The translations under genes were made by a program, and so were the position numbers. Below are positions 1 through 28,293 of a stretch of DNA of 64,000 nucleotides, piece after piece (within the stretch, counting starts at the first letter, position 1; each line of letters starts with the position of its first letter). The stretch lies in sequence record ON568341.1; one strand, given 5' to 3'. The stretch is from Escherichia phage UE-S1. The notes beneath the pieces are model-generated. The model was not told the origin of the DNA. It did not search any database and was given only the letters and a program-made list of their open reading frames with translations.

Positions 1-44
1 GAGAAACATATTTCACAATCCGTCACCCAGAAGGATTTGAATTT

Positions 45-980
45 ATGATTAGTGCAAAAAACATGAATGATTTAATTATCAATAATGATATCATTAAAGG
101 TGTTTTTGTAGACCCAATGTTTTTTAACAATAACTTAGAATTGATTAATGGTAAAACAAAAACATTTGCTAAGTTAGTTGAAAAACAAAATAAAAAAGAA
201 CAACAAAAAGAAACTGTGGCAAGTCTTAAAGTTGGTGATGGTTTCACTTATCTTAAAGAAGATTACTATTACTGCGGTAAAGTACATGCAATTTGTATCA
301 AGAAAACTAAAGAATTTGCATATCCAGATAAAAGTTCAATATATCATTTAGTTTTTAATAGTACTCGTGGAACTTATGCATTGAATCAACGTTTGGATAA
401 TTACAATCTGGAACCTCGTGCACTCTTGAATAAGAAGACTACGACAGATGAAGAAATTAAACTTGCTAATGAATTTTGGCAAAGCTATAGAATAAACAGA
501 CATAACCCATTAGGTGAATCTAACATTCCAGTACTGGTACACAATAAATCATTTAAAGCAAAAGACCTTAAAATTAAATACGAAGAAATAAATGTTGATG
601 ATCTTATGAACAATGGACGTTTCAACGAAAACGTACCATTCATGACTAAAGATAATGAACAATCTTATCGCGTATTTTTTGGTGTAAGTGATAATACGAC
701 ACGTAGTTATTATGGACGTAGCGGGGATTATACTATTCATTATATTGATAAATTTGAACGCTTTAGTGCATACCCAGTTCAAATTGATGATAATGGAATT
801 ATGTCAATGGATGTTGATATTAATGAGCACACATCATTTAGTACATGGAATGGTTATCGTTCTCCATTCTTTCCACCAAATGAACGCAAAACATCAAGTA
901 CTCGTTACTATCAGGATAAACCATGTCACGTCCAATTATCAATTAGCAATCCACTTTTTATTGGAAAGTATTATCTATAA
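45..980 (+). CDS. hypothetical protein (311 aa)
   Basis: Long ORF immediately upstream of ligase in a co-directional array; no motif recognised. Confidence 0.5.
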   Translation: MISAKNMNDLIINNDIIKGVFVDPMFFNNNLELINGKTKTFAKLVEKQNKKEQQKETVASLKVGDGFTYLKEDYYYCGKVHAICIKKTKEFAYPDKSSIYHLVFNSTRGTYALNQRLDNYNLEPRALLNKKTTTDEEIKLANEFWQSYRINRHNPLGESNIPVLVHNKSFKAKDLKIKYEEINVDDLMNNGRFNENVPFMTKDNEQSYRVFFGVSDNTTRSYYGRSGDYTIHYIDKFERFSAYPVQIDDNGIMSMDVDINEHTSFSTWNGYRSPFFPPNERKTSSTRYYQDKPCHVQLSISNPLFIGKYYL

Positions 981-991
981 AGGAATATACA

Positions 992-2413
992 ATGAGCATT
1001 TTAGCAATTCTTGAAAGCATTAAAAATACTAGCAGTACTCTGGGTAAAAAAGCTATCCTTGAACAAAACAAAGATAACCAAACATTACAAAAAGTACTGA
1101 AATATACACTAGACCCTTCAATTGTAAGTGGGTATAAAAAGCTACCACAAGCTGATGATGTCTACCAACATATGACATTAGATGAAGCAATTGATAAGCT
1201 AGAATGCATTTACAAACGTGGTGTAACCGGAAATGCTGGACGTGACTTTATTGCTTCAGTACTGGGTTCTGTATCTGAAGATGATCAGGAAGTTCTACGA
1301 AGAATGCTCACTAAGAACCTTGATTGTGGTATTCAAGAAAAGAACTGCAATGATGTGTTCGGGAAAGGTTTTATCAAAGACGAACCATACATGCGTTGTT
1401 CTTTGATTGACAAAAAGACTGCAAAGAACATTAACTTCAAAGATTATGGTTATGCTATATCAGAAGTGAAAATGGATGGTCAGTACTTGAACCACGTTGT
1501 CATTAATGGTTCATTAACTTCTACATCCCGTAATGGTAAACTATACGACTTCCTGGGTTGTCGTGATGGTGAGATGGCAGGTCTTGCTCACATCATCCAA
1601 AGTAAAGATGAACGTTTTAGTAGTGGTGTAGTCTTTATGGGTGAAGGTGTAGTACTGGACAATGATGGAGAAACCATTCTCCCACGCACTACTGGCAATG
1701 GTATAATTCAGAAAGCTGGAAAAGATAGTATCAGTCAGAATGAAGCAATGCGTACTGTATTTGTTCTATGGGATGTTGTTCCATATGATGCATTTTGTGA
1801 AGGTGTATGGGATGTAAAACGTAAAGAACGTCGCGAGATCTTAGTAGATGCAATTAACGAACTCAGTAGTGATTTTGTTCGTATGGTTGGATTCCGTAAA
1901 GTTCTAAACATCAAAGAAGCATTTGAGTACAATAGTGAACTAATGAACGAAGGTGAAGAGGGTTCAGTACTGAAATGTGAAGATGGTATCTGGAAATCTC
2001 ACACTTCTCCTAAGCAATTGAAAATGAAACTTAAAATGCAATTGGACTTGCGTATTGTTGGTTTCAATGAAGGTGAAGGTAAGCGTAAAGGTAGCCTTGG
2101 TTCTTTACAACTGGAAAGTGCTTGTGGTACATTGAAAGTTAATGTAGGTACTGGAATTAAAGAGAAAGACGCAGAATGGACGTTTAAAACCATTTGGGAA
2201 AGAATGCAAGAACTCATTGGTCAAGTAGTAACCGTGCAGTGCAATGATATAGTGTATGATCAGCGTACTGGCGAACCATCACTATTTTTACCTGTGTTTA
2301 TTGAATTTAGATTTGACAAAAACACTTGTGACGACTATACTCGTATCTTAGAAATTCGTGATAGTGCTGTTGAAGTTTTTAGTAATGCTATCATAAAATC
2401 GTTAACTAACTAA
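992..2413 (+). CDS. ATP-dependent DNA ligase (T4 gp30-like)
   Basis: N-terminus KKAILEQNKDN resembles T4 ligase QKQAILEKNKDN; adenylation motif K-x-D-G (EVKMDGQY); AAGGAA RBS before ATG. Confidence 0.85.
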   Translation: MSILAILESIKNTSSTLGKKAILEQNKDNQTLQKVLKYTLDPSIVSGYKKLPQADDVYQHMTLDEAIDKLECIYKRGVTGNAGRDFIASVLGSVSEDDQEVLRRMLTKNLDCGIQEKNCNDVFGKGFIKDEPYMRCSLIDKKTAKNINFKDYGYAISEVKMDGQYLNHVVINGSLTSTSRNGKLYDFLGCRDGEMAGLAHIIQSKDERFSSGVVFMGEGVVLDNDGETILPRTTGNGIIQKAGKDSISQNEAMRTVFVLWDVVPYDAFCEGVWDVKRKERREILVDAINELSSDFVRMVGFRKVLNIKEAFEYNSELMNEGEEGSVLKCEDGIWKSHTSPKQLKMKLKMQLDLRIVGFNEGEGKRKGSLGSLQLESACGTLKVNVGTGIKEKDAEWTFKTIWERMQELIGQVVTVQCNDIVYDQRTGEPSLFLPVFIEFRFDKNTCDDYTRILEIRDSAVEVFSNAIIKSLTN

Positions 2414-2424
2414 AAAAGAATAAT

Positions 2425-3495
2425 ATGTATACTATTGATGATGAAATAATTAATAATAAATTTATTTCTGATACATACAATGCATATGATATATCTAAAA
2501 TAATTCTCAAGGAAAAGTATCCTCAATTTGATTGGGATACTATTGACCTTGAGAATTTAAAAACTGATGATTATTGTAAAAATGACATTATTGGATATAT
2601 ACAAGATAAAAAAAATATAAAATTGTATGGCATTAAATGTGAAAAATGCTCCCAAAATTACAAACTAAATGGTCTAGGGATATATTTTTCATATAAAGGA
2701 AATTTAGTTAAGGGTAAGTGTCCATGTAATTGTAGTAAGCATAAATTCTACACAAAATATCAAAATATTTTTTTGATTAATGAAAAAGCAAAAACGTTAA
2801 ATTATATTTTTTGTGGTTTTGTTGATGAGTATAAAGGTAAAAATAAAACAAAAATAAAATTATATTGTCCAAATAACAAACATGGTATATGGGATACAAC
2901 ATTAATATATAGTTTTATAGAATCAAACAATGGATGTATTAAATGTGCACATGAATCAGTCGGGTTAAGTAATAGTATAACTTTCGCAGATCATATAAAA
3001 GATTTTTTATCAACTGGTAAGTATAATAAAAATACAAAATTTTGGAAATCTAATAAGATTGACAGTAGAGGATATAATAATTATTGGTTTTGCCAATGTC
3101 CAATATGTAAAACTACAGTTGAGGCATCTACTACAAATCTTAAAAGTGGGAAAGTATCATGTTTATGTAACGGGAACACCCAGCAACAGGGATATATAAA
3201 TTTAGTACTTGACAATGATATACCAATTGCATTAAAATATGGAATAACATCTAATACAGAAGTCAGAGAAAAAACACAAAATCGCAATTCAATCTATGAT
3301 ATTGTAAACTGTGGTGTCTGGGAGTTTGAATCTTCTTTGTTATGTAAATCAGCAGAAGCGGAATGTAAAAGAACTTTCTCACCAGTACTTGAAGCTCGTG
3401 AAATGAAAGATGGATATACTGAAACTACATCACCATTAGATATTGACAAAATCATTGAAATATATGAAAATTGGGGTGGTGTGCGAATAAAATAA
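2425..3495 (+). CDS. Cys-rich hypothetical protein with three repeated Cys-cluster modules
   Basis: Clusters CEKC..CPCNC, CPNNKHG..CIKC, CQCPIC..CLCNG; likely zinc-binding. Confidence 0.5.
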   Translation: MYTIDDEIINNKFISDTYNAYDISKIILKEKYPQFDWDTIDLENLKTDDYCKNDIIGYIQDKKNIKLYGIKCEKCSQNYKLNGLGIYFSYKGNLVKGKCPCNCSKHKFYTKYQNIFLINEKAKTLNYIFCGFVDEYKGKNKTKIKLYCPNNKHGIWDTTLIYSFIESNNGCIKCAHESVGLSNSITFADHIKDFLSTGKYNKNTKFWKSNKIDSRGYNNYWFCQCPICKTTVEASTTNLKSGKVSCLCNGNTQQQGYINLVLDNDIPIALKYGITSNTEVREKTQNRNSIYDIVNCGVWEFESSLLCKSAEAECKRTFSPVLEAREMKDGYTETTSPLDIDKIIEIYENWGGVRIK

Positions 3496-3507
3496 CCGGA
3501 GGTAATT

Positions 3508-4299
3508 ATGAAATTTGTTGTAACGTCAGACGTACACGGTGGCACTGATTACCTCCATAGTGGTGATTACAGTGATACAGTACTGTTCATTGCTGGAGAC
3601 TTCGATGAAGTTAAACGCAGTCGTTACCGTACTGGTATCGAATCACTATGTAAGCAGTTCAAAAATGTAGTGCTGGTTCCTGGCAATCACGAATACTATG
3701 GTTCTAATATCCACAAAACGCATAAAGTTCTATCTGACATGCAAGATGAGATTCCCAATTTCATCTTTTTGCAAAACAAATTTGTATGGCTGGATGGGGT
3801 ACTTCTTGTTGGTAGTACTCTGTGGACAGACTTCGATAAAGGTAACTCTTTGACTAAGTTTGATGCTCGTCAAAAGATGAATGATTATAAACATATCCGT
3901 CATGGAACAACATCCGAGCCTTGGCGTAAGAAGTTGACACCAGATGATACGGAGTTCATGCATTATAAAGATAAACAATTTATTAAAAATTCTATTGACA
4001 CGGCTCGCTTTATGCATGATAATGATTTCAAGGTAATTGTGATTACACATCACGCACCAAGTTATCAAAGTGTTTCACCAAAATATAAAAATGATTCCCT
4101 GAATGGCTGTTACTGTTCAGATATGGATCAGTACATTGAAGATTTGGGTGCTGATATTTGGATTCATGGTCATGTTCATAGTAGCTTTGACTACCACATT
4201 GGTAAGACACGTATCATTTGTAATCCACGAGGCTATGAATCGTACAGTGGTGCTTGTGAGAATTTTGATTACAATCCTAAATTAGTATTTGAAATTTAA
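3508..4299 (+). CDS. calcineurin-like metallophosphoesterase
   Basis: Motifs SDVHGG, IAGDFD, PGNHEY, ITHHAPS, HGHVHSS; GGAGG RBS. Confidence 0.75.
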   Translation: MKFVVTSDVHGGTDYLHSGDYSDTVLFIAGDFDEVKRSRYRTGIESLCKQFKNVVLVPGNHEYYGSNIHKTHKVLSDMQDEIPNFIFLQNKFVWLDGVLLVGSTLWTDFDKGNSLTKFDARQKMNDYKHIRHGTTSEPWRKKLTPDDTEFMHYKDKQFIKNSIDTARFMHDNDFKVIVITHHAPSYQSVSPKYKNDSLNGCYCSDMDQYIEDLGADIWIHGHVHSSFDYHIGKTRIICNPRGYESYSGACENFDYNPKLVFEI

Positions 4300-4311
4300 T
4301 AAGAGGATATT

Positions 4312-4695
4312 GTGTCATTAATTTATTTTGAACTACCCGAATATACCAATTATCCAAGCCGAGTTATTTGCTCAATATATAGTAATGCATACCATCACTT
4401 GTTAGTGAATAGTAATAAAGCTGTGCATTATTATCGAGATAAAGAACCAATTATATTAAAGAATCGTTATGGATTTAACTCAACTGATCCTGAAGTTAAA
4501 CTCTGTGATTTATCAGGGGAAGTGTTGGTTGTAATGAAATGTGATACTAATCTTTTCCATACATACAAACTTAATCAGTACTTTATGGAAACACTTTCTA
4601 TACGTTCCCATGCTCCGATGATTAAAGTTGATTTGAATTATGTTGATGATAAATTAAAATACGATCTCATAAATTCACTTGTTTATTTGGAGTAA
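4312..4695 (+). CDS. hypothetical protein
   Basis: ORF in array, GTG start after AAGAGGA. Confidence 0.45.
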   Translation: MSLIYFELPEYTNYPSRVICSIYSNAYHHLLVNSNKAVHYYRDKEPIILKNRYGFNSTDPEVKLCDLSGEVLVVMKCDTNLFHTYKLNQYFMETLSIRSHAPMIKVDLNYVDDKLKYDLINSLVYLE

Positions 4696-19752: not shown

Positions 19753-20367
19753 ATGACTACATCGGAAAAGTACTGGTGGATTTTGGGTCATCCTAAATTC
19801 ATAAACAAAGATATGGTTCCAGCTAGGATTGAGATAGAACCCCATGATGTGTGTCCAATGACAAATCGAATTGAAGATTTCAAAGCATTAAATACAAAGA
19901 CTCAATTTTGGGTAGAATTTCTTTCACCAATGTATATTGAGCAAGACGATGAATGGGTACAAGCACATGATTACCAATTAGATTGTGGTGGTGATACGTA
20001 TGAAGAGGCCATTGATGAATTATACAAAAATGTGCTAAAAACATATGGTGATTATACCCAACAAGAAGCTGACGATAAATTTAATAAGACCCATGCATTC
20101 AAATCTACTCAATCAATTTTTAATCCCACTAAAACTGTTTGGGAGGAACGACATAGTTGGAGTTCATGTGTAATCGATGAAGAAACCAAAGAAACAATTA
20201 TCGATGACATAAAAAATGTAAAAAATACAATAGAAGCCTTGCGTGAATTCATAAAGTCTTGTACAATAGAACAACAGAAAGAGGCAAAGATACATTTGGA
20301 GAGTGAAGAATGTAAACTTTGGGTTCTAGAGAAATCGATTGAAAAGGGTATAGACTTAGACATATGA
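19753..20367 (+). CDS. hypothetical protein
   Basis: Track ORF; start set at MTTSEK Met after GGAG. Confidence 0.45.
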   Translation: MTTSEKYWWILGHPKFINKDMVPARIEIEPHDVCPMTNRIEDFKALNTKTQFWVEFLSPMYIEQDDEWVQAHDYQLDCGGDTYEEAIDELYKNVLKTYGDYTQQEADDKFNKTHAFKSTQSIFNPTKTVWEERHSWSSCVIDEETKETIIDDIKNVKNTIEALREFIKSCTIEQQKEAKIHLESEECKLWVLEKSIEKGIDLDI

Positions 20368-20732
20368 ATAGTAAATTGGCGAAACTAATCGAAGATTTAC
20401 GCCAGATGCCGCCTATTGAACAAGTAGGAAATTACAAACGGTATCGTGTTATTGCTCGTGCACTTGATAAAAAAGGTCGAGTACTGGCAACTCGTACCAA
20501 TTCTTATACACAGACTCACCCAGTACAGAAGGGTTTCGCCATTCGTGCTGGGCGACCGCAAGGTGAGTTTCTTCATGCTGAAATTTCATGCTTACTGGCT
20601 GCTCGTGCTGATGTTCATACTTTACTGATTGCACGGATAAGTAAAGATGGAATTCCTGTTCCAGCCAAGCCTTGTGAGATTTGTACGTTGGCAATTATGG
20701 AATATGGGGTCAAAGAAATTATTCACACATGA
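20364..20732 (+). CDS. small cytidine-deaminase-fold zinc protein
   Basis: FLHAEISCLLAA and KPCEICTLA = H-A-E / P-C-x-x-C zinc-deaminase signature; second CDA-fold gene in window. Confidence 0.5.
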   Translation: MNSKLAKLIEDLRQMPPIEQVGNYKRYRVIARALDKKGRVLATRTNSYTQTHPVQKGFAIRAGRPQGEFLHAEISCLLAARADVHTLLIARISKDGIPVPAKPCEICTLAIMEYGVKEIIHT

Positions 20733-21966: not shown

Positions 21967-22141
21967 AATCTTCAAAAAAGAATACGATGGTGAAAGTCTC
22001 TATGATATTCAAAGAGACGTACATGAAGCCTTCGATTCAAGATTTAACCCATTAGCTGAACAAATCCCACAAGATGAATTTGGTTTTCAGGAAGGCACTT
22101 TCACAGTGACTATTACATGGAGTCCAGATGAGACTAGCTAA
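21956..22141 (+). CDS. small hypothetical protein
   Basis: Short ORF overlapping upstream stop. Confidence 0.35.
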   Translation: MQNEIFKKEYDGESLYDIQRDVHEAFDSRFNPLAEQIPQDEFGFQEGTFTVTITWSPDETS

Positions 22142-22243
22142 ACTTGTCATAGGGTGTAGTGCAATTGCTGCATATATGATTTTTTCACCTCCAACCAATG
22201 TATTACTGCTAATTTGGGCGGTTGTTATATTAGCAGTACTTTA

Positions 22244-22267
22244 AAAGCACCTTAGTGGTGCTTTTTA
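22244..22267 (+). terminator. intrinsic terminator
   Basis: AAGCACC / GGTGCTT stem then T5. Confidence 0.7.
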
Positions 22268-22404
22268 TATTTGTGCAAATAAAAACCAATGTGACTTTTC
22301 CTTGATATATATCAAGAGAAATAGCCTGTTCTGACGCTATAATATTGTCTGGTGATATTAAATATCTTCACCCCCAGATGATTTCAAAATACAAGGAATG
22401 TACA

Positions 22405-24210
22405 ATGCAGCTAGATAAATTATATAATGACGTAACGAATTTCCTAAATCAGAGTAATACAGATCTCACAAATGAAAATGCGAACAAAGATGCGAAGTGC
22501 GTCAATACACACAGGGATTTACTTGCAGGTATCCTATCTAAACATTATTCACAAGATGTTATCCCAAATGAACTAATGCAGTGGCATAATGATGGTTATG
22601 GACATATTCATGATTTAGACTACTATATCAGTCCATTAACCAACTGTTGCTTAGTCAACTACCCAGATATGCTAAAAAATGGATTTACTATTGGCTGTGC
22701 TAAAATTGAAGAACCAAAAAGTTTTAGTGTTGCATGTACAGTACTAACACAGATTGTACAAGCTGTAGCTAGTTCACAATACGGAGGTCAATCGTTGGCT
22801 CACATTGATGTCGGGTTGGAACCTTACGTTAAAAAGTCATGGGATAAACTATTAGAAAAACAAAAGAAATATAATCTAAGTGATGAATACATTGAAGAAG
22901 AATTACGAAAAGAAGTATACGATGGATGTCAAACATTACTTTATCAAACTAATTCAATGATTAGTACTAATGGTCAAGCTGCATTTATTTCTCTTAGTTT
23001 AGGTTTGAATACTTCCAAATTTGGTAAATTAATCACCGAACAGTACTTAAAAGTTCATGAGAATGGTTTAGGTAAAGATAAGATTACTCCAGTGTTTCCT
23101 AAAGTGATTTTCTTTTTACAAGATGGTATAAACATGAATACCAATGATTGTAATTATGACCTTAAACAGTTAGCTATGCGTTGTGCATCAAAACGAATCT
23201 ACCCAGACTTTGTTTCAGTTCCATTAAATCACAAAGTGACGGGAAGTAGTGGCACTGCTGTAACACCGATGGGCTGTCGTTCATTCTTAGGAAAATGGGA
23301 AGATTCAAATGGAAATGAACAATATAACGGTCGCTTCAATTTAGGTGTAGTTTCTATCAATTTACCACTAATTGCTCTTGAAAGTGCTACAGATGGAGAG
23401 TTTTTTGATAAGATAGATGAGCATATGAATATTGCATATCGTGCTCAGATGAACCGCGTAGAGCGTTTAAAAGGTACAAAAGCGAAACAGAATCCAATTT
23501 TGTTTATGGAAGGTGCATTAGCACGTTTAGATGCAGAAGAGACTATTGACAAGCTATTTTACAATGGTTATGCTAGTATTAGTATTGGTTATGTTGGACT
23601 TGTTGAATGTTCGGAAATCCTCACTGGTTCTATCAGTAAGGAGTTTTGTATGTCAGTACTGAATTATATGAAAGTAAAATGCGATGAGTTTAAAAAAGAA
23701 AGTAATATTGCTTTTAGTTTATATGGAACTCCAGCAGAGTCACTTTGTTATAAATTTGCACGTTGCATTGAAGCAAAGTATCCGTCTGTTCTAAAACGTA
23801 ATTATATTACAAATTCATTCCATCAACCAGTATGGGTTGAAAGTTCTGCTTTTGAAAAGTGGGATTATGAGGAAAACTTTGCTTATCTAAGCAATGGTGG
23901 TAATATTAGCTATGTCGAAACACCAAACTTAACAAACAACATTCAAGCACTTGAAACATTAATCAATTATGCCTATAAAAAAATTCCATATTTTGGAATA
24001 AACCAGCCTATAGATCATTGTCATAAATGTAATTTTGAAGGTGAATTCAGCGTCGATAAAAACGGTTTCCACTGTCCAGTTTGTAATAATAGAGATGAAA
24101 AATCTATGTCAGTTATTCGAAGAGTTAGCGGATATCTTAGTGCACCAAATAGTCGCCCATTCAATAAAGGAAAGCAAGATGAAGTGATTCAGAGAATTCG
24201 CCATTTATAA
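22405..24210 (+). CDS. nrdD: anaerobic ribonucleoside-triphosphate reductase
   Basis: Close resemblance to T4 NrdD (TDLTNENANKD, PLTNCCLV, GCRSFLG); C-terminal Zn ribbon CHKCNFEGEF..CPVCNN and glycyl-radical motif RRVSGYL; start at ATG 22405 aligning with T4 N-terminus. Confidence 0.9.
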   Translation: MQLDKLYNDVTNFLNQSNTDLTNENANKDAKCVNTHRDLLAGILSKHYSQDVIPNELMQWHNDGYGHIHDLDYYISPLTNCCLVNYPDMLKNGFTIGCAKIEEPKSFSVACTVLTQIVQAVASSQYGGQSLAHIDVGLEPYVKKSWDKLLEKQKKYNLSDEYIEEELRKEVYDGCQTLLYQTNSMISTNGQAAFISLSLGLNTSKFGKLITEQYLKVHENGLGKDKITPVFPKVIFFLQDGINMNTNDCNYDLKQLAMRCASKRIYPDFVSVPLNHKVTGSSGTAVTPMGCRSFLGKWEDSNGNEQYNGRFNLGVVSINLPLIALESATDGEFFDKIDEHMNIAYRAQMNRVERLKGTKAKQNPILFMEGALARLDAEETIDKLFYNGYASISIGYVGLVECSEILTGSISKEFCMSVLNYMKVKCDEFKKESNIAFSLYGTPAESLCYKFARCIEAKYPSVLKRNYITNSFHQPVWVESSAFEKWDYEENFAYLSNGGNISYVETPNLTNNIQALETLINYAYKKIPYFGINQPIDHCHKCNFEGEFSVDKNGFHCPVCNNRDEKSMSVIRRVSGYLSAPNSRPFNKGKQDEVIQRIRHL

Positions 24211-24286
24211 TATAGTATAACATGATTACCTCGATTTAACATAAATATTTAAAATTAAATCGAGTAAACTAATTATGAAATGAAAA

Positions 24287-24320
24287 ATGAACAAAGAATC
24301 TAATTTTTTGTTCATTTGTT
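24287..24320 (+). terminator. hairpin downstream of nrdD
   Basis: ATGAACAAA / TTTGTTCAT stem, interrupted T-run. Confidence 0.4.
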
Positions 24321-24384
24321 TATGAAATATCGTTTGATGATAGAATATTAAAAAAAACACTGAAATAAAATTAAGGAGAAATAT

Positions 24385-24744
24385 ATGTTAGAAGCTAAAC
24401 AGGTAATGTCAGGTGAACATCGTGGAACTATTTTTCTAAAAGAAGATGATGTTGTAAAAATTGTAGTATCTAAAACTTTTTCCGAAGATGATGAAGTACT
24501 ATTGAGTACTTTTGATGGTGAGGTTCTACGTGATGTACAGATCAAACATGAACCAGTAATTGAAGGTGGTCAGCATTTAAATGTAAATGTCTTATCTAAA
24601 GAACAACTCATTGATGCACAAAATAATCCAGAAAAATATCCGCAACTTACCATTCGTGTCAGTGGTTATGCTGTTCGTTTCAATTCACTAACAAAAGAAC
24701 AACAAGATGATGTAATTTCTCGTACCTTTACAAAGGAAATTTGA
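24385..24744 (+). CDS. grcA: autonomous glycyl-radical cofactor protein (GrcA/YfiD-like)
   Basis: [11 protein letters not shown] and [26 protein letters not shown] are near-identical to the E. coli GrcA / PFL C-terminal glycyl-radical domain. Confidence 0.75.
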
Positions 24745-25070
24745 TGGATTTAAAGCCAATTGTGGTTAACAAATACAAAGAACCGTATGATGTGTACATT
24801 GGTCGTGGGTCTAAATGGGGTAACCCATTTACCCATATCAATGATAAACAGACGAAAGCCGAGTTCATTGTTGCTACAAGGGAAGAATCAATCGAAAAGT
24901 TCAGAGAATACATAATTGAACGTATTTCTAATGGCGAAGTTAAAATTGATGATTTACTTGAATTAGCAGGGAAACGTCTTGGTTGTTTCTGTAAACCAAA
25001 ATCATGTCATGGTGATGTTCTCGTTGAAATAGTGAGTGCAATACTAGATGAATTACCAGACGATAATTAA
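24741..25070 (+). CDS. DUF4326-like small protein
   Basis: [11 protein letters not shown] and [14 protein letters not shown] motifs. Confidence 0.5.
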
Positions 25071-25518
25071 AGATGACCTTATTAATGGTGAGGGGGTGAG
25101 ATGTTCCCTCTTTGTTAGTGGGTGCAGTCATGGGTGTCCTGGATGCTTTAACGAAGTTGCATGGGATTACCGAAGTGGACAAGAGTTCAGTACTGAAACA
25201 ATTGATATAATTTTAGCTGAACTCAGTAAACCGTACATTAGTGGGTTATCACTACTTGGTGGAGATCCACTAATGAAAAAGAACATCGAAACAATTTTAG
25301 AACTATGTAAAATTGTAAAAGATACTTATCCAAATAAAACTATTTGGTGCTGGAGTGGGTATACTTTACAAGAGATTATGGTCAATCATGCCTCTCCAAT
25401 ACTGGAGTACATAGATGTATTGGTTGATGGTAAATTCATAGAAGCAGAAAAGAATTTAAAATTACCTTTTCGTGGTTCTAACAACCAACGAATTTTATAT
25501 AAAAATAAAGATTTTTAG
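25048..25518 (+). CDS. nrdG: anaerobic RNR activating enzyme (radical SAM)
   Basis: MNYQ..NGEGVRCSLFVSGCSHGCPGCFN aligns with T4 NrdG; Cys cluster; LLGGDPL. Confidence 0.85.
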   Translation: MNYQTIIKDDLINGEGVRCSLFVSGCSHGCPGCFNEVAWDYRSGQEFSTETIDIILAELSKPYISGLSLLGGDPLMKKNIETILELCKIVKDTYPNKTIWCWSGYTLQEIMVNHASPILEYIDVLVDGKFIEAEKNLKLPFRGSNNQRILYKNKDF

Positions 25519-25522
25519 TACA

Positions 25523-25547
25523 AAAGCACCCGTCGGGTGCTTTTTTG
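25523..25547 (+). terminator. intrinsic terminator
   Basis: GCACCC / GGGTGC stem then T6. Confidence 0.7.
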
Positions 25548-25554
25548 TTATGTA

Positions 25555-25562
25555 TATAAATA
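25555..25562 (+). promoter_or_regulatory. T4-late-type TATAAATA box
   Basis: Exact TATAAATA ~30 nt upstream of tail fibre ATG, just after the nrdG terminator. Confidence 0.45.
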
Positions 25563-25593
25563 CATTAACTAATATCTAATTTATAAGGGATAT

Positions 25594-28293
25594 ATGATGT
25601 CAAAGAAAATATATGGTGGATTAGATGTCACACATAATGTGACAGTTAATGGAAAAAGAACAATACAAGGTATTAACAAACAAGTGTTTGACGAAAATGG
25701 TAATATGGTGTTGGATACATATTCAAAAAATGAAATGAATGATATCATTGGTATGTTACCAATTTCACATTATGGTTCCATGAACTATCTACCTGCTGGG
25801 GTCGGTGGGGATTTCAATGGTGCATCAGAAAATCAGGCATATCGCAGGAATAAGGTATTATTGGAAAATGATGGAACACTCGTTCTTTTGCGTAGTGGTA
25901 CAAACGGTAGTGTTGAAGGTTTATATTATTCTTATTTGTCTAATGCATTAGCAGTTACTGATATGAGTCGTACAATTAACACAAGTCGTCAATACAAACC
26001 AGGATTCTTCGGTCCAAATCGTGTTGCACTTGGTTTATTTAACACTGATCAAAATATTATAATGGGGAGATATAAAGATATTTCAAACAACACAATTGGT
26101 ACATTCATTTCTATTACTAATGGTACACTTAATGATACATTACACACAGGTTTTTTTGTAAATCAAACTGATATATCACCTGAAGGTGGTGTTGAATATG
26201 CTATGATGGCAGAAGACGGTTCAATATATGTTTTTAATGTAATTAATGAAAATAATAAATTTGAAATAGCCATTGTTAAAGTTGTATTTAATGTGGATAA
26301 TGGTTCTTACACAGCAACCCGCATCACAGGGTGGACTACAAAAACATTTTATAATACTACTTATTCTGGGCAAAATAATATTGTGATAACTAATGCAATG
26401 ACGTCAACTAATATTGCGGATAAGCCTTATGTATTTGTTCCTCCGAATTTGTATGGTATGGGGATTTATATGACATCTATTGATTTATATGTTGCACAAC
26501 AACCAGGAACACAAAATTTTCGTTTCAGGATGAATGGTGACGCTTATTTCGCCATGCCAACATATAGTTCGCGTCCACAACACAATTATAGTTTCACGTT
26601 CGATATGAACTCAAAGCAATGTACATTAGATGCAGGTAACGATATTGGCTCCTTCCAAGCACCGTTGGTTATAACAAATACAGGTTCTGACTTAGTTGCA
26701 TCTGGTAATGTGTTGAATTTAGACCCACTATATGACCACAATGGATATAGAAACATTTATAGTTCATATTTTTATTTAAATTCTGGTGACGTGTTTTGTA
26801 CTGCATGTCCAAACTTAGCAGAGCCACTCGCTATGCAAAAAGCAAAGTTTCCTGTGCAAATAGTATATAACATGTTAAATGTTCGTGCTGTTATATCATC
26901 AAACTTCATAGGTGGTATCGTCCGACCATCATTTGGTTCAGCGGTTGGTTCATATATTAATGGCGTTGAACTACTTCCAGATAACAGTACTAAACAATAT
27001 TCACGAGCATCTGGTTCAGGTGGTTTTAGTCCGTCATATGCAGTTCATAAAAGTACTCCGAATTTTACATTTCAATCGTTATCATTGGGAACAATTCAAG
27101 GTTATGAACCCACCACTGAGCGTAAAAATGTAAGTGAAAATAACAACAATAGAATTTTCATTAGTACTGTGTCTGGGTCAACAGTTACAACTAATGGTGG
27201 TATTTTTATGGTCGGACAACGTTATTCACAATCACTGTCTTTTGATAAAAACTTAAATGGTACAGGTAGTATTAGTGTTTCGCAATCAGTTCTTGATGGG
27301 TTCAGAGACTCTGAATATGCTAAAGTTTTAAGTGATTGGAATTTATCTCCGCAAGCGGGTAAAGATATGACATTGTTTGTACCGCAACAAGCGGATATTC
27401 CAGCATTTGTCATGCTCAGTACAATAACTAATGATTTTAAAAACTACATTAGAATTGCTGAAGTTAATGTAAACACCAGAGTAGGTGAAATCAAATCGAT
27501 AACATTCAAGCGTTTAGTTCTTGAAAATAGATATGGTGATAGTTTCACACCGAATGTTGGCGGTTATATTGCACCATCATCTGTTGGTTTAACAATTTAT
27601 GATGGTGGTTCTTTTTATTTCATTGGCGGTTCAGATCCATTAACACATCCAACAATTGGTAATACAGCAACACACATATTTCGTGCATACGTAAACAAAT
27701 CATCTGCACAATTTGAGAGTTTTATTATTGATGGTATCCATGCGTACTATAATCAAGGCCGTCAATTCACTGCATTACCTGATATTGGATTTGGATATTT
27801 TGATACAATAGACTATGATAACAAAATGATTTTCCGCAAATGTGGAACTACTATTGAAGAATATAATAACTGGAAAGAACAAGGTAATCCAATCAACGTT
27901 GTTTCACAAGATGTTGCACAAGGATTTGTTGTTTATTTTACAGAAGAAACTCCAGTTATTCTTTCTGGTAAATCATTTACCTTACCAGTGTCAAATATTG
28001 ATTTAAGAACAATAAAGCCAAACCCAGCCAATACAACATTTCATGTATATGTTAAGTTAAAACAAGGATTAGTAACTTATCATATAACTACCGATGTTAT
28101 TTCAGAAACTGGGACAATTGCATATAATATATTGTGGATAGGAACAATTAGAACTAACGATATTCAAATTGTATCAATTGATATACAAAAACGTTCACGA
28201 TTGGATATTTTTGGTGCTTCACTTGAAGCGGCAGGGGTTTCGTTCCCAGTCAGCTACGGTCTACCATCACAAACAGGAACCATAAACTGGTAA
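25594..28293 (+). CDS. tail fibre protein (paralogue A, 899 aa)
   Basis: Large Ser/Thr/Asn/Gly-rich protein; paralogous to 28911-31643; conserved C-terminal module ending TGTINW; TATAAATA late-promoter-like box upstream. Confidence 0.65.
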   Translation: MMSKKIYGGLDVTHNVTVNGKRTIQGINKQVFDENGNMVLDTYSKNEMNDIIGMLPISHYGSMNYLPAGVGGDFNGASENQAYRRNKVLLENDGTLVLLRSGTNGSVEGLYYSYLSNALAVTDMSRTINTSRQYKPGFFGPNRVALGLFNTDQNIIMGRYKDISNNTIGTFISITNGTLNDTLHTGFFVNQTDISPEGGVEYAMMAEDGSIYVFNVINENNKFEIAIVKVVFNVDNGSYTATRITGWTTKTFYNTTYSGQNNIVITNAMTSTNIADKPYVFVPPNLYGMGIYMTSIDLYVAQQPGTQNFRFRMNGDAYFAMPTYSSRPQHNYSFTFDMNSKQCTLDAGNDIGSFQAPLVITNTGSDLVASGNVLNLDPLYDHNGYRNIYSSYFYLNSGDVFCTACPNLAEPLAMQKAKFPVQIVYNMLNVRAVISSNFIGGIVRPSFGSAVGSYINGVELLPDNSTKQYSRASGSGGFSPSYAVHKSTPNFTFQSLSLGTIQGYEPTTERKNVSENNNNRIFISTVSGSTVTTNGGIFMVGQRYSQSLSFDKNLNGTGSISVSQSVLDGFRDSEYAKVLSDWNLSPQAGKDMTLFVPQQADIPAFVMLSTITNDFKNYIRIAEVNVNTRVGEIKSITFKRLVLENRYGDSFTPNVGGYIAPSSVGLTIYDGGSFYFIGGSDPLTHPTIGNTATHIFRAYVNKSSAQFESFIIDGIHAYYNQGRQFTALPDIGFGYFDTIDYDNKMIFRKCGTTIEEYNNWKEQGNPINVVSQDVAQGFVVYFTEETPVILSGKSFTLPVSNIDLRTIKPNPANTTFHVYVKLKQGLVTYHITTDVISETGTIAYNILWIGTIRTNDIQIVSIDIQKRSRLDIFGASLEAAGVSFPVSYGLPSQTGTINW

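Follow-up and report, generated by a model that had tools for sequence, protein, structure and literature searches.

Known relatives of the protein reported here include E. coli GrcA (YfiD) and Y06I, the product of vs.6 in phage T4. Phage GrcA is already known, as a textbook spare-part protein, with biochemistry since 2001, when Wagner et al. (BBRC 285:456, a study cited in PMC8683613) reportedly demonstrated that T4 Y06I is a phage GrcA. Y06I is a validated spare part for pyruvate formate-lyase (PFL): it serves as a substrate of host PFL-AE and restores PFL that has been cleaved (PMC8683613). The combination of a radical installed by PFL-AE and the rescue of oxygen-cleaved PFL is known only for YfiD and Y06I (PMC8683613). 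In T4-like phages vs.6 is located in the tk-vs-regB region, far from nrdD and nrdG, whereas in Rak2-like phages, including Escherichia phage UE-S1, nrdD and nrdG flank it on either side. Annotated orthologues at this site exist already for RaK2, Munch, Muenster, K64-1 and ph0011. Those of RaK2 (gp014, "vs.6") and Munch (gp167, "glycyl radical cofactor") share 75-76% DNA identity with the UE-S1 gene.

Here we describe the UE-S1 locus (ON568341.1) within a stretch of 64,000 nt, referred to as the window. The genes nrdD, grcA-like, DUF4326 and nrdG follow one another on the plus strand (Table 1). Alternative in-frame starts of nrdD are found upstream at TTG 22345 and ATG ~22378. Minus-strand ORFs of 61-65 aa also occur within the genes and are without support.

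Table 1. Features of the nrdD-nrdG region of phage UE-S1 (window coordinates)
Feature	Position	Strand	Remarks
Terminator-like hairpin 5' of nrdD	22243..22265	+	AAAAGCACC...GGTGCTTTT, then a T run; left edge of putative transcription unit
nrdD, class III (anaerobic) ribonucleotide reductase (RNR), T4/E. coli type	22405..24210	+	PF13597 553.7 bits; NF006732 775 bits (cutoff 657)
AT-rich spacer, 174 bp	24211..24384	+	GC ~24%; hairpins 24230-24264 and 24285-24317
grcA-like gene of the phage Y06I/vs.6 family; product an autonomous glycyl-radical protein of 119 aa	24385..24744	+	Radical glycine G94
DUF4326 gene, homologue of T4 nrdA.1, 108 aa	24744..25070	+	PF14216 86.3 bits (cutoff 25); phrog_464
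nrdG, radical-SAM activase of class III RNR	25048..25518	+	TIGR02491 193.9 bits (cutoff 126.1); CSHGCPGC cluster motif
Terminator-like hairpin 3' of nrdG	25522..25544	+	10-bp stem, 5 GC pairs, T run; right edge of putative unit

The 119-aa protein is a small stand-alone glycyl-radical domain of the PFL type, as the initial annotation had proposed. It matches PF01228 over residues 58-100 (65 bits; cutoff 22.2) and the GrcA model TIGR04365 over residues 25-118 (125.3 bits, E 1.7e-36). The match to phrog_1209 spans the whole protein (residues 2-119 against 1-121 of the family, E 2.2e-51). Compared directly, it scores 108.7 bits (E 1.6e-30) with the C-terminus of E. coli PflB (669-758) and 105.7 bits with E. 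coli GrcA (6OWR), where residues 24-118 align with GrcA residues 29-126. Identity to the T4-type vs.6/GrcA genes is 57-62% over 99% of the length. T4 Y06I (~58% identity, T4-type orthologue) is likewise a stand-alone phage protein of ~120 aa in phrog_1209, with the same core and the same N-terminal motifs.

The likeness to the host proteins is greatest at the C-terminus. Over the last 61 residues, identity is 80% with E. coli PflB, including RVSGYAV, and 77% with E. coli GrcA, which bears out the near-identity of the C-terminal half described from the sequence at the outset; the motifs quoted then were found. In contrast, the N-terminal half is only ~30% identical to host GrcA, and the UE-S1 gene is phage-borne. 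G94 is the equivalent of Gly734 in the PflB domain (1H16, 2PFL). However, the catalytic barrel and Cys418/419 of PflB are absent, and the protein is therefore unable to be a PFL on its own.

The equivalog cutoff of TIGR04365 (170 bits, NCBIfam) is not reached by the UE-S1 protein. The T4-type (153), RaK2 (136), BF (136) and T5-type (118) proteins also score below it. With each of these phage proteins under 170 bits, the cutoff appears to set the phage branch as a whole, including that of the validated Y06I, apart from the GrcA of bacteria. Among 28 phage homologues the RVSGYAV radical motif is unchanged and the C-terminal 61 residues are nearly invariant; the N-terminal motifs QxxSGEHxGTI and IVSKTF are also kept. 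The dN/dS values of grcA (0.03-0.23) are similar to those of the neighbouring genes, with the strongest constraint in the C-terminal half. The gene is under purifying selection.

NrdD matches T4 NrdD (1H78) with 559 bits, and in this alignment the T4-equivalent C79/C80, C290, N311, the four zinc cysteines and G580 are kept. It has its own C-terminal glycyl-radical motif (RRVSGYL), as annotated, and the gene is intact. The marks of the T4/E. coli subtype are a thiyl-loop Cys, a second Cys, an Asn replacing the Glu of thioredoxin-type enzymes, a zinc ribbon and the C-terminal glycine. All of these are present, which places the phage enzyme in this subtype, and by homology it is predicted to use formate. 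NrdG has the radical-SAM CxxxCxxC motif and scores at equivalog level; its placement after NrdD stands as first given.

The four genes are bounded by terminator-like hairpins. The upstream hairpin has a 9-bp stem with 4 GC pairs, and its stem sequence is repeated in the downstream hairpin, which begins 4 nt past the nrdG stop and is 90% identical over 31 nt to an annotated terminator of phage Munch. Five terminator-like sites were observed compared to 1.2 expected from shuffled sequences, and around the four-gene unit they occur only at the two flanks. In Munch the annotators' terminators also flank nrdD-grcA-nrdG, with one upstream of nrdD as in UE-S1. Within the unit, grcA and DUF4326 overlap by 1 nt and DUF4326 and nrdG by 23 nt. 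We infer that the four genes are co-transcribed.

The spacer between nrdD and grcA is found in the window and in TH47 only; in ph0011 and A4 the corresponding distance is ~10 bp. It carries a strong ribosome-binding site (AAGGAGA), located 7 nt before the start codon (ATG) of grcA, and its predicted fold has a minimum free energy of -30.2 kcal/mol (z = -3.27). The hairpin at 24285-24317, together with the GTTTAT that follows it, might stop some of the transcripts from nrdD before they reach grcA. No further copy of the spacer was found in the window, and neither the spacer nor any other part of the window matched an Rfam family.

The DUF4326 ORF reported between nrdD and nrdG was recovered, and its likely start is ATG 24744, which overlaps the grcA stop (TGATG) and is preferred to TTG 24741. 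The conserved motifs GNPF and CxCxPxxCHGD are present, residues C81, C83, C88, H89 and D91 are invariant, and the AF2 model has a pLDDT of 92. The T4 homologue nrdA.1 belongs to the same Pfam family (PF14216), is ~42% identical and likewise abuts an RNR gene (upstream of nrdA in T6), but there the neighbour is a class I RNR and here a class III enzyme. RaK2 gp012 is annotated as "nrdA.1", Munch is without DUF4326, and in Vi01 and CBB the gene is placed apart from the RNR genes. DUF4326 sits in a variable slot between grcA and nrdG. The ORFs in this slot of Serratia BF and L015 were considered as remote DUF4326 homologues and rejected (hhalign probability ≤1%).

Related phages had been proposed as a check on the position of grcA, and orthologues do lie between nrdD and nrdG in RaK2, Munch and others. 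The order nrdD-grcA-(variable slot)-nrdG is common to RaK2, Munch, Serratia BF, A4, ph0011, TH47 and uncultured relatives, covering at least three named genera, unclassified Rak2-like phages and metagenomes. A distant 330-kb contig has a looser linkage. About 28 close relatives of the PBECO4/121Q type are without grcA; most phages of this type have lost it, and this polymorphism inside Asteriusvirus is a clean loss. Since these isolates are viable, the gene is not essential, at least under laboratory conditions. A loss of grcA through recombination of its RVSGY codons with those of nrdD was considered and rejected; the tail of PBECO4 NrdD is NrdD-like and not GrcA-like.

These data do not agree with the initial description of grcA and DUF4326 as cargo inserted at an nrdD hotspot. 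The order is inherited across genera, the divergence of grcA follows that of the neighbouring genes, and the absence in the PBECO4/121Q type is a loss. No nuclease domain was found in either ORF, and no intron RNA fold was detected in the window by Rfam. Homing-endonuclease genes at the nrdD locus are present in relatives only (TH47 and L016) and are genes other than grcA and DUF4326. For the insert in TH47 nrdD, considered as a group I intron, Rfam gave no signal even at E ≤ 1, and the GIY-YIG ORF is all that is claimed for it.

Outside the Rak2-like phages, grcA is carried by T4-like and T5-like phages, where it is away from nrdD. All three groups of carriers encode nrdD; genome size confounds this co-occurrence. 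One T5-like phage encodes both nrdD and grcA and lacks nrdG. The record PV468777, a small P2-like "phage", was rejected as a further case of grcA without nrdG: it is a mis-delimited prophage with host focA-pflB-pflA, and the match is host pflB.

We consider it probable that the 119-aa protein is the phage orthologue of T4 Y06I and E. coli GrcA, that it rescues host PFL as a spare part, and that formate explains its linkage to nrdDG. Included in the same judgment is the reading of nrdD-grcA-DUF4326-nrdG as a four-gene anaerobic-growth unit passed down by vertical descent among the Rak2-like jumbo phages. The argument is built on sequence and on analogy with characterised proteins. As for Y06I, the host PFL activase (PflA) would install the radical on Gly94 of the phage GrcA. 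The activated protein would dock into host PflB that oxygen has cleaved or that is inactive for another reason, and this docking would bring back pyruvate formate-lyase activity. A role in PFL repair, as first suggested for this gene, is consistent with the T4 Y06I precedent (PMC8683613).

PFL is the main cellular formate source and could supply formate to the formate-dependent phage NrdD. Formate as the reductant of such enzymes was reportedly described by Mulliez in 1995. The reductant of T4-type NrdD is formate, which is also the product of PFL (PMC4390871). The presence of grcA within the nrdDG unit is likely metabolic because NrdD is predicted to depend on formate and PFL makes it. In addition, the upkeep of PFL under micro-oxic conditions would guard fermentative energy and reductant for phage dNTP synthesis. 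No discussion of PFL-derived formate feeding a phage RNR was found for phages in the open-access literature searched. The linkage of nrdD and grcA may instead come from shared regulation or history. Indeed, it is not needed for GrcA function, as grcA is unlinked in T4-like and T5-like phages.

The position of the gene had also led to the suggestion that NrdG may activate the protein. That phage NrdG rather than host PflA installs the radical, which would explain the position and free the phage from the host activase, seems unlikely to us. The gene order is kept across genera, grcA, DUF4326 and nrdG are tightly packed, and the RRVSGYL of NrdD in this clade shares RVSGY with GrcA and PFL, where the T4 crystal form (G580A mutant) has RRTCAYL. 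However, glycyl-radical signatures often have Ser at this place in the motif, and glycyl-radical enzyme activases are normally partner-specific. Beyond five residues around the glycine, GrcA resembles PFL and not NrdD (25 bits and 16/36 identities to the UE-S1 NrdD by BLASTP). In T4-like phages vs.6 is not linked to nrdG, and T4 Y06I is activated by PFL-AE (PMC8683613). The T5-like phage with grcA and nrdD has no nrdG, and activation by NrdG is thus disfavoured as a general rule. Slightly less probable again is an extension in which the Rak2-like GrcA joined the class III RNR operon as a substrate of NrdG and NrdD shifted to the PFL-like RVSGY, giving a module, independent of the host activase, by which PFL would go on producing formate for the phage reductase. 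Were NrdG to serve GrcA, a single activase would for the first time be seen to act on two different glycyl-radical protein families.

The phage protein might instead be a takeover factor or decoy that titrates host PflA or occupies PflB, redirecting fermentation with no repair. In vivo, E. coli GrcA reportedly acts on PflB that is inactive though of full length (Kammel and Sawers, 2022), and the N-terminal half is conserved among phages while unlike that of host GrcA, but the strict retention of the radical glycine and of the entire PFL-fitting C-terminal half argues for a catalytically competent spare part and makes the decoy improbable. We find it highly improbable that the protein serves as a spare part for NrdD of the phage itself, after cleavage by oxygen, and not for host PFL. 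Oxygen reportedly cleaves NrdD, too, at the radical glycine (King and Reichard, 1995), and grcA is immediately downstream of nrdD. Spare parts for other glycyl-radical enzymes have been a subject of speculation (PMC8683613). However, the similarity to NrdD is at the level of a motif compared to 80% identity to PflB, the zinc ribbon of NrdD is absent from the protein, and its C-terminal sequence is constant in phages whose NrdDs differ. A leftover of an nrdD 3' end that was interrupted or duplicated, named in the initial annotation as the finding that would undo its reading, or a decaying functionless pseudogene, is refuted. The ORF shares RVSGY with NrdD, adjoins nrdD and is missing from most close relatives, but NrdD is complete, the protein scores 108.7 bits to PflB and 25 bits to NrdD, and no NrdD model is among the NCBIfam matches of the protein. 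The full-length agreement with phrog_1209, the strong ribosome-binding site and the low dN/dS are contrary to decay.

With phage GrcA and its position between nrdD and nrdG already on record, the addition made by this locus is modest. The order nrdD-grcA-nrdG is conserved throughout the jumbo-phage clade and its uncultured relatives. Phages without grcA (PBECO4/121Q type) and phages with it (UE-S1, TH47, ph0011 and A4), which are ~90% identical, offer a natural comparison for micro-oxic infection. The passage of PFL formate to a formate-dependent phage RNR would provide a concrete and testable reason for the linkage of grcA.

The window comes from a Rak2-like jumbo coliphage of roughly 350 kb, and the nearest record to 22000-26000 is Escherichia virus TH47 (Asteriusvirus; 91% identity). 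At the sequence level, family scores put the assignment of NrdD, the 119-aa ORF, DUF4326 and NrdG beyond doubt. The 119-aa ORF is preceded by an AAGGAGA ribosome-binding site and its stop shares bases with the DUF4326 ATG (TGATG), while DUF4326 and nrdG overlap by 23 nt. The downstream hairpin has 90% identity with an annotated terminator of Munch, a phage in which nrdD-grcA-nrdG is flanked on each side by annotated terminators. The 174-bp spacer between nrdD and the 119-aa ORF holds two hairpins (24230-24264 and 24285-24317, the second followed by GTTTAT) and could be an internal attenuator or processing site. At this length it is found in the window and TH47 only; in ph0011 and A4 the gap is about 10 bp.

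Features of the nrdD-nrdG locus (window coordinates)
Feature	Position	Strand	Evidence or remark
dCMP-deaminase-like flanking ORF	20364-20732		upstream; so annotated in ph0011 and A4
Terminator-like hairpin	22243-22265		upstream side of four genes; stem AAAAGCACC...GGTGCTTTT
nrdD	22405-24210	+	PF13597 553.7 bits (cutoff 26.2); NF006732 775 bits (cutoff 657)
AT-rich spacer, 174 bp	24211-24384		between nrdD and 119-aa ORF
grcA-like 119-aa ORF	24385-24744	+	PF01228 65 bits (cutoff 22.2)
DUF4326 ORF	24744-25070	+	PF14216 86.3 bits (cutoff 25)
nrdG	25048-25518	+	TIGR02491 193.9 bits (cutoff 126.1)
Terminator-like hairpin	25522-25544		downstream side of four genes; stem as at 22243-22265
Conserved flanking ORF, 899 aa	25594-28293		directly past nrdG terminator; ph0011 note 'T5orf172 domain-containing protein'

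The 119-aa ORF encodes a GrcA/PFL-type protein. Over residues 24/27-118 it aligns to the C-terminus of E. coli PflB with 108.7 bits and to E. coli GrcA (6OWR) with 105.7 bits. Across the final 61 residues identity is 80% with PflB and 77% with GrcA, falling to about 30% in the N-terminal part. The match to its own NrdD reaches 25 bits (16/36 identities, the generic radical motif only). Window NrdD is complete and of the T4 type (559 bits to 1H78), keeping equivalents of C79/C80, C290, N311, the four zinc cysteines and G580. The ORF is therefore not an nrdD fragment, the one alternative that the initial annotation had named. It also matches phrog_1209 over its full length (E 2e-51; this model has no cutoff) and TIGR04365, the NCBIfam GrcA model, at E 1.7e-36 and 125.3 bits, under the cutoff of 170. 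Because a T4-type orthologue (153) also falls under it, this cutoff appears to shut out the whole phage branch rather than the window protein specially.

A tblastn search found grcA homologues in 1,587 phage records. T4-like (vs.6), T5-like and Rak2-like phages are represented, and many of the homologues are already labelled "autonomous glycyl radical cofactor" or "pyruvate formate-lyase". The window grcA belongs to a kind of phage gene that is already known, and its position is both inherited and already annotated. A PFL match in PV468777.1 ('Entero_P88') was rejected as a host gene; that record takes in roughly 18 kb of the host chromosome (dmsABC, pflA, pflB, focA, ycaO, serC, aroA).

The initial annotation had recognized the GrcA-like gene correctly, but its reading of the gene as inserted cargo did not hold. 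The order nrdD-grcA-DUF4326-nrdG is common to ph0011, A4 (Asteriusvirus) and RaK2 (Alcyoneusvirus; annotated vs.6 and nrdA.1). Munch has nrdD-grcA-nrdG, Serratia BF (Eneladusvirus) has nrdD-3 ORFs-grcA-ORF-nrdG, and uncultured relatives (65-71% identity) keep the nrdD-grcA-nrdG core but vary in what is inserted, a SegE-type GIY-YIG gene being one of the inserts. Between grcA and nrdG, Asteriusvirus and Alcyoneusvirus carry DUF4326, Munch has nothing, and BF and one further relative (L015) have unrelated ORFs. Identity of grcA is 84-86% to ph0011/A4 and 75% to RaK2, roughly paralleling nrdD divergence. Purifying selection acts on the gene: dN/dS is 0.03-0.23 over its whole length, with 0.02-0.14 for the C-terminal half and 0.14-0.38 for the N-terminal half, compared with 0.03-0.19 for neighbouring genes. 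In PBECO4, 121Q and about 28 other Asteriusvirus records among the matches listed, query coverage is only 84-85%; in records of this type DUF4326 follows the nrdD stop codon directly, without grcA. The last 93 nt of nrdD (window 24119-24210 versus PBECO4 L001 3619-3710) show 55% identity, against 79% across the 300 nt before. The tail encoded by the grcA-less allele, GNPSSRGFNKGKQQE, resembles that of Munch, and the deletion allele is thus mosaic. The pattern is read most simply as an ancestral core, nrdD-grcA-nrdG, whose grcA-nrdG slot varies, with grcA cleanly lost from most Asteriusviruses.

Farther away, a 330-kb metagenomic contig (59% identity; nrdD-x-x-nrdG-x-x-x-grcA) is a second, looser nrdDG-grcA neighbourhood in a distant jumbo phage. 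Its positions 1-4366 hold, in order, an ATP-cone NrdD, NrdG, an ART-PolyVal-like ORF, an RlaP nucleotidyltransferase ORF and grcA. On a 195-kb contig grcA is unlinked.

Genuine homing-endonuclease cargo does occur at the nrdD-nrdG locus, but in relatives. TH47 nrdD is interrupted past ...RFNLG by a 1,173-bp insert (L003 2847-4019 = window 23346|23347) encoding a GIY-YIG + HTH endonuclease ORF (PF01541); no group I intron signal was found in this insert with Rfam, and the insert may be an intron or nrdD may be a split gene. At precisely this point, identity between window and TH47 rises from 90.4% to 96.0%. It falls from 96.0% to 81.6% at a TH47 328-aa ORF between DUF4326 and nrdG (L003 5733-6719 = window ~25071), which has weak DUF4379 treble-clef zinc-finger and CapR matches. 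This site looks like a second mobile-gene junction.

DUF4326 belongs to the T4 'nrdA.1' family (T6 copy at L011 3504-3791). Two unrelated groups of phages have it next to RNR genes, T6 beside class I nrdA and the window beside class III nrdD/G, whereas in Vi01 and CBB it lies away from them. No solved structural relative was found for its confident AF2 model.

Mulliez (1995) reportedly described formate as the reductant for NrdD of the E. coli/T4 class. Two spare-part proteins have been validated, YfiD of E. coli and Y06I of T4; they receive the radical from PFL-AE and restore oxygen-cleaved PFL (PMC8683613, citing Wagner et al. 2001). The window GrcA would likewise need a fit to host PflB and recognition by PFL-AE. 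Both are indicated by the PFL-type C-terminal half, near-invariant across phages of differing lineages, by the RVSGYAV core shared with PFL, and by the Y06I precedent. Proximity to nrdG had suggested possible activation by phage NrdG instead, an explanation now weakened. Salmonella phage rokbiter (T5-like, NC_048868.1) carries nrdD (42% identity) and grcA without nrdG, for which no tblastn match at E ≤ 1 was found across its 112 kb; its NrdD and GrcA must therefore both use host activases. T4-like phages, in which vs.6 is unlinked from nrdDG, weaken the NrdG explanation as well.

A metabolic reason for the linkage is better grounded than NrdG activation. The reductant of the E. coli/T4 NrdD class is formate, the product of PFL (PMC4390871). 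Each of the three grcA-carrying phage groups examined has nrdD as well, and we infer that PFL formate would feed the formate-dependent phage NrdD. No paper discussing such coupling in phages was found in the open-access literature searched. The locus offers natural pairs of grcA-plus and grcA-minus phages, and a testable hypothesis of formate supply.
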